NCBI GenBank assembly: GCA_942492765.1 | Contig: OW818634.1 | Location: 6,627 to 70,626 of the forward strand | Direction: 5' to 3' | Length of the DNA stretch: 64,000 bases | Origin: an uncultured bacterium | Lineage (GTDB): Bacteria; Patescibacteriota; Patescibacteriia; Patescibacteriales; UBA12465 | In this document: in pieces, positions 29,660 to 37,132 of the stretch | Layout: the number at the start of each line of letters is the position of its first letter | How positions within the stretch are numbered: position 1 is the stretch's first letter | Program-made: the position numbers and the translations under genes | The notes under the pieces: model-generated | Seen by the model: the letters and a program-made list of their open reading frames with translations, nothing else | Databases searched by the model: none | What the model was told of the DNA's origin: nothing

Positions 29660-32600
29660 ATGTTTGTAAAAAAACGTATTTCCTCTGTTAAAAAACTAGC
29701 AATTTTATTGTTGGTTTTTTTGTTTTTGGGGCAGAATGTGACTTTAGTGTTGGCCGCTGAAGGTGTCGAGGCCGGAAGTGTGCCCGCGTCCGAAACACCG
29801 GCTAGTGATAATATCACTCCGATGCCCGCGTCCGATATCCATGCTGGCGCTGTTGATGCCACAAGTAAATTGGTGGCAGATGAGGCCGCTATAATTGATT
29901 CTATAAGTACGGAAAAGACAGACAGCACTGTTGATGCTACGCCTACTGTTGATTCTGATAAAAAAGCCTCTTCTGCCAAGAGTTCTGATAACTTGATGAG
30001 TACCATGAGCTCTGGTACCGAGCCTGGAGAAACTTCTCCTGATGAAACTAAAAAAACCGCGGATGCTAAATTGCGCGTGGAAACTGATTCCGTAACTGGC
30101 GGTTTTATTTACACTTATCCCGTAACTGTTCCGCCCGGAAGAAATGGCCTCCAGCCAGATTTAAAACTTATATATAATAATCAACAAGAAGAGAACAACG
30201 CCAATGCCTTCGGTTATGGTTGGTCAGTAAATATTCCTTACATTGAAAGAATAAATAGAAAAGGTGTAGAAACCTTATTTACTCAATCTTTTTTTAATTC
30301 CAGTTTGACCGGCGAGTTAATAAGAGTCGGCACCTCAACCTCCTATGGCTCCAAAGTAGATAATGGAGAATTTTTAAAATATCAGCTGATCGATAATTCT
30401 TATTGGCAAGTAACGGATAAAAAGGGTTTTCAATATATATTCGGTTCATCGATTGATGCTAGACAAGACAATCCGGCCAGTTCAACGCAGATATTCAAAT
30501 GGATGCTTGAAAAAGTAATAGATCCTAATAATAACTATGTTTCATATAGTTATTATAAGGATAACGGGCAAATTTATCCTGATACTATAAAATATACCGG
30601 TTATAATACAACTGACGGTATATTTGAAGTTGATTTTTCTAGGGAATCCAGAAATGACGCCGCTACTTCAACTAATACTGGTTTTTTTGTTAAAACAGCT
30701 TATCGCATTAATCAGATTCAAGCTAAAATAAATGGCACCTGGGTTAATCAATATCAACTAGGTTATCAAAATGGCGATAATGGAGTAAGATCGCTATTGT
30801 ATTCAATCACAGGAAGCGGACGCGATGAACGGGGTAATACTACTAGTTTACCAGCCGATAGTTTTAATTATCAGACAAAAACAAAGAACTGGAGCCAAAA
30901 TACCAATATAAGCATCCCCGTTTCTTTTTTGGATGCCAATGGTTATGATAATGGTGTTCGCTTGGCGGACGTTAATGGCGACGGATTAATGGATATTATC
31001 CAATCCCGCTTAAACAATTTTCCATATTCTGCCTCAAGCGCAGTCTATCTTAATAATGGAGATGGAACTGGCTGGCAGCAGGACACTAACTGGGTTCTTC
31101 CGTCCGTGTATTTTGCGAGTGTTTATGTTAATGATACTGGCGTACGTGTCGCTGATGTTAATGGTGATGGTTTGGCTGATATCCTTGGACCTTCCGGTGT
31201 TTATATCAATAATGGAACTGGCTGGCAGCAGGATACCAATATAAGTATCCCTGTTTCTTTTTTAGATAGTAATAGCTATGATAATGGCGTTCGTTTAGTA
31301 GACGTTAATGGCGATGGATTAGTAGATATTATTCATGCCCGCCTGAATAATTTTCCATATCCAGCTTCGAGCGCAGTCTATCTTAATAATGGAGATGGAA
31401 CTGGCTGGCAGCAGGACACTAATTGGGTTCTTCCGTCCGTGTATTTTGCGAGTGTTTACACTATTGATACTGGCGTACGTGTCGCTGATGTTAATGGTGA
31501 TGGTTTGGCTGACATCTTCGGCCCCTCGGGCGCAGTATATATTAATAAGGGCGACGGAACTGGTTGGCGACAGGATGCTAGTATGACCCTTCCCACTTCA
31601 TTTTTAGATGCTAATGGGCGTGACACCGGCGTGCGCGTAACTGATGTGAATGGTGATGGATTGGCGGATATCCTTGAGGCTCGCATAAATAATTTTCCAT
31701 ACTCAGCTTCAAGCGTAGTTTATATTAACAAAGGAGACGGAACGGGTTGGCAGCAAGATGCCAATTGGAGCCTTCCTCCTGTTTATTTTGCTAGCGTTTA
31801 TGTTAATGATACTGGCGTACGTATTAATGATATTAATGGAGATAATCTGGTAGATATTTTTGGTCCCTCGGGTTCAGTTTATCTAGCTAATCCTAAAAAA
31901 GCGGACTCCTTGTCAATAATAAATAATAATAAAGGTGCCAAGGTTTCTGTGGTATATAAAAATACTCCTGAATATTTAAGCGCTACCAGCACTTTATTAA
32001 ATCCAAAATTGCCGATAAATCTGCAGACTGCCTATCAGATCGGCGTCGATGACGGGCAGGGGAACGTGGCGACCTCGACTTATTCGTATGTTGGTGGCGA
32101 ATATTATTACAATAACGCCTATGATAAAAAATTTGCTGGTTTCAATAATACAACGAAAACAGATTCCACCGGAAATGTTACGAAAAATTATTATCATCAA
32201 GGAAGCGCTAATAGTACTACTACGGGGGAATACGCTGATCATATTTCTAAATCCGGTAAGGCCTATCGGACGGAAAATTATGATAATGCTAGCAACCTAT
32301 ATTCCAAGACTATTAATAAATGGGATCGGTCTGATCTAGGCGATGGACGAAATTTTGTTAAGTTAGTTCAGTCCATTGACTCTACATACGACGGTGATTC
32401 AACACATAAGGACAAGGCGAAAACTTTTGCTCATGATAACGCTAACGGCAATAAGACTCAGGAAACTAATTGGGGTGAGGTAGCCGGAAGCGACGACGGC
32501 ACGTTCTCAGATACCGGAGCCGACCTGGCTTCAACCACGATAACTTATGCGGCCAGCACTACTCCTTATATTGTAGGCCTGCCCTCGCAAGAAACGACCT

Positions 32601-37132: not shown

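Follow-up and report, generated by a model that had tools for sequence, protein, structure and literature searches.

A candidate secreted RHS/Tc-type polymorphic toxin with a predicted glycan-docking cassette and a predicted cysteine-hydrolase tip in a Patescibacteria genome

Introduction

Little is known of the ways in which ultra-small Patescibacteria recognise other cells, attach to them and harm them. A gene that bears on this question lies in a 64,000-nucleotide (nt) stretch of contig OW818634.1 from an uncultured bacterium of this lineage (the window below always means this whole stretch), where a single 7.5-kb open reading frame (ORF) encodes a giant protein with RHS/YD repeats. A preliminary description, made from the sequence alone, had taken it for a polymorphic toxin of a small-genome bacterium like those of the candidate phyla radiation (CPR) and had found the layout of carbohydrate-binding modules (CBMs) within its RHS part unusual. 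What is this protein built of, what might its C-terminal end attack, and how is it related to the known RHS and Tc toxins? The account that we reach, and consider likely, is that of a Sec-exported polymorphic toxin cocoon of RHS/Tc type with a glycan-docking cassette, a cysteine-hydrolase tip and an immunity gene, in a Falkowbacteria-like member of Patescibacteria. To the preliminary description we add the nature of the tip, the candidate immunity gene, a relic of recombination, and the recognition of the CBMs as parts of one cassette at an insertion hot spot.

Results

Domain order of the protein

The gene occupies 29660..37132 on the plus strand; it starts with ATG, encodes 2490 amino acids (aa) and, with 7,473 nt, takes up 11.7% of the window (about 12% had been stated), and there is no second long ORF at this position. 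The protein runs from a signal peptide and an S/T/A-rich linker through SpvB, six FG-GAP repeats, TcdB mid-N and the RHS shell to the Rhs core and the tip. The features of the gene and of the segment directly downstream are as follows.

29660..29758 (+), aa 1-33: predicted Sec-type signal peptide, MFVKKRISSVKK followed by the hydrophobic core LAILLLVFLFLG and VLA-AEG
29759..30076 (+), aa 34-139: low-complexity linker rich in S/A/T/D/E/P (S17, A15, T13 and D12 among 106 residues), no Pfam match
30077..30889 (+), aa ~140-410: SpvB/TcB N-terminal-like domain (Pfam SpvB, 55-68.2 bits, cutoff 22)
30890..31864 (+), aa ~411-735: FG-GAP beta-propeller of six repeats (FG-GAP_3, 77-100.3 bits, 5-6 stretches)
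31865..34147 (+), aa 736-1496: TcdB mid-N and the N-terminal part of the RHS/YD shell (TcdB_toxin_midN, RHS_repeat)
34148..35635 (+), aa 1497-1992: insertion cassette of 496 aa at the family hot spot "site A" (linker, two CBM4-like modules, Ig-like module)
aa 1497-1585: linker of the cassette
34415-34807 (+): CBM4-like module 1
34808-35284 (+): CBM4-like module 2
35285-35635 (+): Ig-like module
35636..36280 (+), aa 1993-2207: C-terminal part of the RHS/YD shell (RHS_repeat, 42.7 bits; aligned with TccC2/YenC2 through the family profile)
36281..36586 (+): Rhs-associated core (NCBIfam Rhs_assc_core TIGR03696, 59.2 bits against a cutoff of 32.5, aa 2208-2308)
36587..37132 (+), aa 2310-2490 and stop: toxin tip, a predicted permuted NlpC/P60-type His-Cys hydrolase (H2338, Q2362, N2418, C2420)
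37137..37556 (+): candidate immunity gene, 139 aa (MKRKIK, one transmembrane helix at aa ~5-25, soluble domain)
37570..37671 (+), between the immunity ORF and gapA: decayed RHS shell-coding relic equivalent to aa 2085-2118 (tblastn, 73.5% over 34 aa, E 1.3e-12)

The Pfam matches for SpvB, FG-GAP_3, TcdB_toxin_midN, RHS_repeat and CBM_4_9 were judged to lie above the curated thresholds. TcdB_toxin_midN scores 59 bits over aa 711-848, and RHS_repeat reaches 67.6 bits in 5 stretches on both sides of the central region, next to TIGR01643 YD_repeat_2x at 32.8 bits; sequence matches of the SpvB-like region in the PDB are YenB and SpvB. The propeller is encoded by three tandem direct repeats of 300 nt (family D1, 30889-31863) with 87% and 72% identity, each corresponding to a pair of FG-GAP blades, and these diverged repeats indicate an internal duplication of the propeller. 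The hidden Markov model (HMM) searches that had been proposed as a check on the preliminary description returned SpvB, RHS/YD, FG-GAP and CBM_4_9 above threshold, and all domains that it named were recovered, in its order, by Pfam, NCBIfam or AlphaFold2 (AF2).

The N-terminus is the sole hydrophobic segment of the protein (Kyte-Doolittle mean over 19 residues above 1.6 at aa 6-36 only), and the family consensus likewise keeps a signal-like N-terminus; export is predicted on this ground, with putative cleavage at VLA-AEG. Toward the other end, the Rhs core carries GRFVSEDP (aa 2253-2260) and YVDPTGK (aa 2303-2309), the DPxGK ending seen earlier, as predicted aspartyl autoprotease motifs. The sequence NNPLKYVDPTGK ends at aa 2309, with K where PxxxxDPxG(L) usually has L. 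The core Asp equivalents are invariant among 28 relatives, and this conservation of the motifs predicts that the core would cleave itself. A Pfam scan of the protein detected neither a PAAR or VgrG-type domain nor a surface anchor that would hold it on the producer, and its gene neighbours are housekeeping genes, with no type VI secretion system (T6SS) neighbourhood.

A family profile built from 28 insert-free relatives matches the TcdB2-TccC3 fusion with E 5e-61 and the propeller and mid-N region of TcdB1/YenB with E 7e-32 (about E 1e-31; profile positions 340-812 against chain positions 341-796), and it also matches TccC2, YenC2 and T6SS Rhs proteins. The protein is a fused TcB/TcC-like RHS type, built on known principles rather than a new kind of system.

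A cassette of binding modules at an insertion hot spot

The boundaries of the central insertion were set by phmmer mapping of the protein onto 119 relatives. Residues 1496 and 1993 adjoin in insert-free proteins (target positions 1428 and 1434 in P0029), and the shell up to about residue 1496 is colinear across 117 relatives. The length of site A among these 117 is bimodal, with 1-10 aa in 48 proteins, 208-1029 aa in 69 (59%) and none between, and the inserts form at least 10 sequence clusters. The two modules in our protein belong to CBM family 4 by an above-threshold sequence match (CBM_4_9, 79 bits over two stretches, which give 53.6 and 51.6 bits in separate scans) together with a beta-jelly-roll fold. 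The module behind them, previously called FN3-like, is Ig-like: it stays below threshold in the query (Ig_Rha78A_N, 24.4 bits against a cutoff of 27.4), scores 57-88 bits in relatives, and is all-beta in the AF2 model.

Eight relatives have this CBM-CBM-Ig type of insert. Representatives of other inserts contain tandem Ig_Rha78A_N (88 bits), Laminin_G_3 (92 and 64 bits), Bact_surface_Ig-like with Gly_rich_2 (130 and 79 bits) or Sortilin-Vps10 (62 bits), and some have no Pfam match; a word-index search with the CBM-CBM-Ig region gave three matches and was uninformative. The layout regarded as untypical in the preliminary description is indeed so for characterised Rhs/Tc proteins, but within its own family such an insertion is common and, as discussed below, it has a structural precedent. 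The insert would probably lie outside the shell, and the ligand of the predicted CBM pair is probably a glycan.

The type of insert is incongruent with the identity of the shell. When 112 proteins are ranked by identity over aa 740-1496, the CBM-type relatives take ranks 1, 5, 10, 14, 16, 78, 86 and 107, interleaved with other-insert and insert-free proteins. Behind the insert, the query shell shows 52-56% identity to non-CBM relatives versus 41-43% to four of five comparable CBM-type relatives, the fifth (P0024) showing 50%. By this incongruence and the post-insert identities the gene is a mosaic.

An insertion at the junction of the TcB-like and TcC-like parts was considered for site A and rejected: site A corresponds to profile positions ~1482-1488, and residues ~208-640 of TccC2/YenC2 to profile positions 1373-1747, which places it about one third into the TcC-like part. 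Three further regions of the family receive insertions recurrently, near query aa ~1141-1193 (P0034, P0064, P0088, P0115, P0131), near aa ~228 in the SpvB domain (P0019, P0021, P0027, P0085, P0093, P0102, P0132) and at aa ~2090-2180; inserts at these further sites in the shell and the SpvB domain measure 200-730 aa. By its profile coordinates, the site at aa ~1141-1193 may coincide with the TcB-TcC junction.

A tip related to permuted cysteine hydrolases

The 181-aa tip (aa 2310-2490) had been described as variable, and it is found in 0 of the 119 relatives of the full protein. It has no Pfam match, a word-index search found no homolog, and PDB sequence and profile searches gave chance matches only. 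Thirteen relatives of the tip emerged from an exhaustive HMMER search across 1.84 billion representatives. All 13 directly follow the ...NNP...DPxG motif of an Rhs core, and they are carried either by RHS proteins or by proteins that combine a subtilase domain with a core. The invariants of the tip alignment are G28, H29, G40, Q53, F60, I84, N109, C111 and L119, which include H2338, Q2362, N2418 and C2420 of the full protein.

The AF2 model of the tip is confident (pLDDT 85.8, pTM 0.86) and has the fold of a permuted hydrolase, with a His before the Cys and both conserved. Foldseek returned PPPDE1, YiiX, DeSI and 3kw0 (best E 0.02). Sub-threshold Pfam matches of the tip family are to Lnb_N in 8 of 14 sequences and to Peptidase_C97/PPPDE in 3 of 14; the query matches neither, and the tip is outside the curated membership of both families. 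These results make the assignment to the TseH/YiiX/PPPDE/LRAT-like superfamily solid, and the specific likeness to TseH is moderately supported. Compared with the Vibrio cholerae T6SS pair TseH/TsiH (6v98; PMC4453574), the tip has 16% identity and no Foldseek match; TseH is delivered by the T6SS as a free protein and is not an Rhs tip, and the tests made showed no relation between the immunity proteins. The tip represents a branch of TseH-like cysteine hydrolases that is rare and unannotated and has a candidate immunity family of its own. Peptidoglycan is the substrate that we predict, with a confidence somewhat short of even.

The same tip family also occurs in a split arrangement. At L006:72-8517 (1.3-Mb contig ctg340499_279x_c), an SpvB+RHS protein of 1309 aa is followed by a protein with subtilase S8, an Rhs core and this tip, then by the homologue of the candidate immunity ORF and by an Ntox24-like/Imm53 orphan module.

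The candidate immunity gene and probable exchange of the 3' end

The ATG of the candidate immunity gene lies 5 nt past the stop codon of the toxin gene, and by the positive-inside rule the soluble domain of its 139-aa product would face outward. The homologous tip at L006 (P0137, tip 38% identical) is immediately followed by an ORF with 33% identity to the 139-aa protein over 129 aa (85.5 bits), and at L007 a truncated downstream ORF gives a weak colinear match; the ORFs downstream of the homologous tips at L004, L008 and L009 are unrelated to it. An N-terminal hydrophobic segment, read as a membrane anchor from the translations, is present in 5 of 5 downstream ORFs, which fits a toxin that acts outside the cytoplasmic membrane.

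The relic at 37570..37671 and positions 35922-36012 inside the gene make up a direct repeat of 91 nt (84% identity), and tblastn found no other RHS fragment or orphan module in the window. GC content drops from about 0.46 to 0.31-0.38 over 36300-37500. The relic, the GC drop and the mosaic identities together indicate a recombinational replacement of the 3' end, from the last shell repeats through core and tip to the candidate immunity gene, of the sort known from classical Rhs loci.

A family concentrated in Patescibacteria

A scan of species-representative genomes gave 242 candidate stretches; 194 of these encode relatives, none of which is close to the query. By the lineage in the record titles, Patescibacteria account for 66 of the best 79 loci; the rest of these 79 are from Acidobacteriota, 'Gammaproteobacteria', Methanoperedens, Niastella, Methylocystis and Kofleriaceae. 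Ten Pfam toxin tips were verified on the relatives (Ntox21, Ribonuclease, Ntox44, Tox-REase-7, EndoU, HNH, NlpC/P60, M15/VanY, M91 and Tox-GHH), and a further type, SLT lytic transglycosylase (31.6 bits), is the tip of P0025, a relative with the CBM cassette of the query. These interchangeable tips and the linked candidate immunity gene bear out the reading as a polymorphic toxin. Literature searches found no description of the CPR family itself.

In a sample of 11 tips from the family, those of nuclease type (P0031, P0068, P0089, P0083 and others) tend to start with a hydrophobic Gly-rich segment, the maximal Kyte-Doolittle mean over 19 aa being 1.3-2.2. Tips without such a start are those of the query (0.94), M15 (0.26), M91 (0.88) and Ntox44 (0.79), with the NlpC/P60 tip (1.54) as an exception. 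On this small sample, the segment may be a membrane-entry helper for toxins that act in the cytoplasm.

Host and gene neighbourhood

The source contig of the toxin gene measures 895,742 bp. The ribosomal protein S2 encoded next to it shares 97.4% identity with a protein of a Patescibacteria group bacterium metagenome-assembled genome (MAG) and 94.8% with a protein of Candidatus Falkowbacteria, and clustering at 90% identity groups it with Patescibacteria/Falkowbacteria MAG proteins. The attribution to a small-genome CPR-like host therefore holds. Upstream of the toxin gene are rpsB, tsf and a PSP1-domain gene, and downstream are gapA, a short-chain dehydrogenase gene and a NuoF-like gene. At L001:2916-15353 on a 778-kb contig, the gene for P0025 adjoins rpsB-tsf-gapA on the opposite side of gapA; this shared location could stem from a conserved neighbourhood or from an integration hot spot.

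Just downstream, 39571-43092 holds genes for the NuoF-like flavoprotein and for the large subunit of an [FeFe]-hydrogenase (Fe_hyd_lg_C, 291 bits), which fit a fermentative, hydrogen-evolving metabolism, as expected. One ORF at 22522-23982 fuses an OMP decarboxylase with a phosphoribosyltransferase domain (pyrF-pyrE-like) inside a low-GC (0.41) patch of 2 kb. Large proteins with DUF4012 (847 aa), DUF11 (669 aa) and a transglutaminase-like domain (504 aa), encoded at 10964-15538 and 25409-26923, may be associated with the envelope. Over the window (1-64000), long ORFs are almost all on the plus strand and the cumulative GC skew climbs steadily. Searches of the window for tRNA genes and Rfam families gave zero matches, and a promoter and terminator scan did not rise above shuffled sequence (23 versus 25.1 promoters, 5 versus 7.1 terminators).

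Discussion

Proposed mode of action

Several steps can be proposed from the domains and the gene order. The signal peptide would carry the protein across the membrane, and SpvB, the FG-GAP propeller and the RHS/YD repeats would fold on the outside and form a closed shell that corresponds to TcB and TcC fused. The Rhs core would then cut after YVDPTGK and leave the 181-aa tip loose within the shell. Projecting from a shell loop, the two CBM4-type modules and the Ig-like module may dock the cocoon to a polysaccharide of a host bacterium or a competitor. The tip, as a member of the permuted NlpC/P60 group, would most likely act on the envelope, with peptidoglycan as its substrate as has been reported for TseH, and with an envelope target it need not enter the cytoplasm. 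The producer would be protected by the small membrane-anchored protein with its outward soluble part, and the 3' end from the last shell repeats to the immunity gene may have been acquired by recombination as a cassette.

Some observations weigh against this account. Homology to the proposed immunity protein is seen in just 2 of the 5 ORFs that lie downstream of homologous tips. In the closest CBM4 structures the ligands are beta-glucans or xylans, which are not obviously bacterial wall polymers. Release from a closed cocoon is left unexplained where no TcA-like partner takes part, and since the nuclease tips of relatives must reach the cytoplasm, the family must have a translocation step that the model does not explain. 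As to the tip, Foldseek gave weak superfamily matches only and did not retrieve TseH, and the weak Pfam matches favour Lnb_N over the peptidase family, so that a lipid substrate is a live alternative.

Alternative explanations

The last of these points leads to an alternative in which the cocoon is the same and the tip is an acyltransferase or phospholipase (LRAT/PLAAT/Lnb/RID type) acting on membrane lipids or lipoproteins rather than on peptidoglycan. We consider it unlikely, though the Lnb_N matches speak for it and the prediction of peptidoglycan is itself tentative.

It is similarly unlikely that the protein is an episymbiont's device for attachment and for opening the host wall, in which the CBMs would grip host polysaccharide, the hydrolase would open the wall for nutrients, and the downstream protein would prevent self-damage. 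The Patescibacteria lineage of the organism, the concentration of the family in that lineage, the adhesion or lectin-type modules at the insertion hot spot, and the cell-wall enzymes among the tips (SLT, NlpC/P60, M15) are all in keeping with such a device. However, many relatives carry nuclease tips (RNase, EndoU, HNH, Tox-REase-7, Tox-GHH), L006 has orphan toxin/immunity modules, and the cassette-replacement relic is a hallmark of antagonism toward kin or competitors; the family also occurs in free-living phyla, and the Pfam scan detected no anchor on the producer surface.

As for a BC component of a tripartite Tc toxin whose TcA-like translocator is encoded elsewhere in the genome, the strong profile similarity to TcdB2-TccC3, TcdB1, YenB and YenC2 argues for it, as does the retained FG-GAP propeller, which in Tc toxins docks onto TcA. 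Yet one ORF encodes the whole protein, which starts with a signal-like segment, and TcB and TcC subunits are not known to have a signal peptide. Moreover, no TcA-like gene was found in the 64-kb window or beside relatives in L001, L003 and L006, carrying a TcA of about 2,500 aa would be costly for a genome that is represented by a contig of 895,742 bp, and the shell has binding modules of its own. We regard this explanation as very improbable.

To an assembly artefact, that is, a chimera of several RHS genes or collapsed repeats, we give hardly any credence: the internal repeats, the mosaic relation to relatives and the status of the protein as a singleton at 90% identity clustering could point that way, but independent assemblies are colinear with the ORF end to end (P0024, 43% identity and 99% coverage; P0025, 44% and 93%; P0017, 66% identity over 84%, up to its contig end), the frame is unbroken over 2,490 codons, the mosaicism coincides with a biological signature (the relic and the GC shift), and a collapse is unlikely because the 300-nt repeats are only 87% and 72% identical. 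The chimera of collapsed repeats that the preliminary description had named as a test of its reading is therefore improbable.

Comparison with known systems

The Tc BC components (TcdB2-TccC3, YenB-YenC2) share with our protein the SpvB domain, the FG-GAP propeller, TcdB mid-N, the RHS shell, the DPxG core and an encapsulated variable C-terminal toxin. The query differs in being one natural polypeptide with a predicted Sec signal peptide, in a shell that is ~370 positions shorter, and in the 496-aa binding cassette within its TcC-like part. It also has the linked candidate immunity gene, which suggests an antibacterial rather than an insecticidal logic.

WapA-type Rhs toxins of Bacillus subtilis leave a monoderm-type cell by Sec-dependent export with a signal peptide, contain RHS repeats, end in a polymorphic toxin domain and are encoded beside an immunity gene; the query shares with them the (predicted) signal peptide, the repeats, the variable tip and the adjacent (candidate) immunity gene. 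WapA has wall-binding repeats and tRNase tips and is not known to have a TcB-like half with SpvB and FG-GAP, nor is a CBM cassette known within its shell.

The preliminary description had also called the protein teneurin-like. Teneurin-like proteins have been defined by an FN-plug, an NHL propeller and a YD shell, and were reported from six phyla, Patescibacteria not among them (PMC13018210). Our protein has in common with BiTLP (9pt5/9ifo; PMC13018210) the features of a (predicted) Sec-exported YD-shell polymorphic toxin with the PxxxxDPxG motif and a (candidate) immunity gene, and the family profile matches 9pt5 with E 5e-22. Membership was nevertheless rejected: no NHL or FN-plug match was found, the N-terminal half is of TcB type with SpvB and FG-GAP instead, and only the YD shell is common, so that the term is right for the shell alone.

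A 2,487-aa RHS/YD toxin with PA14 and galactose-binding domains and a neighbouring immunity gene has been mentioned in passing in the Saccharibacteria genome 'T. rhizospherense' (PMC6031116). It resembles the query as a giant RHS/YD toxin of a CPR genome with carbohydrate-binding-type domains and a neighbouring immunity gene (a candidate one in the query); the binding modules are different, and that paper gives no analysis of insertion site, family or tip.

The solved precedent for a CBM-decorated shell is SGS1, a mosquito salivary Rhs/YD cocoon of bacterial origin in which a CBM and a lectin-type beta-sandwich are inserted in the Rhs/YD sequence and lie on the shell exterior (PMC9935623). Propeller domains and modules inserted into Rhs/YD repeats are shared with the query. 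SGS1 differs in being eukaryotic, with helices as cargo and without an enzyme tip or an immunity partner, and its insert positions and module families are other ones, with no hot spot of interchangeable cassettes.

Implications

Taken singly, the gene is a well-formed example of known principles, namely Rhs/Tc cocoons, polymorphic tips and CBM-decorated shells. What is noteworthy lies at the level of the family, a large set of putatively secreted toxin cocoons that is concentrated in Patescibacteria and barely described in the literature searched: binding modules can be swapped at one defined site of the shell, an arrangement for which SGS1 offers a structural precedent, and the warhead can be swapped at another. 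A broader generalisation, which we offer tentatively and consider rather unlikely, is that the SpvB-FG-GAP-RHS proteins of Patescibacteria form a self-sufficient delivery system independent of TcA and T6SS, in which a TcC-like loop would serve as a socket for receptor-binding cassettes and the tips would be exchanged independently at the 3' end. If this socket reading is true, the cassettes (CBM4 pairs, LamG lectins, Ig tandems, Vps10 propellers) would be determinants of host or antagonism range in CPR bacteria that can be read from genomes; and if the binding cassettes match target glycans, they would give a sequence-based handle on the specificity for partners or victims in uncultured lineages.

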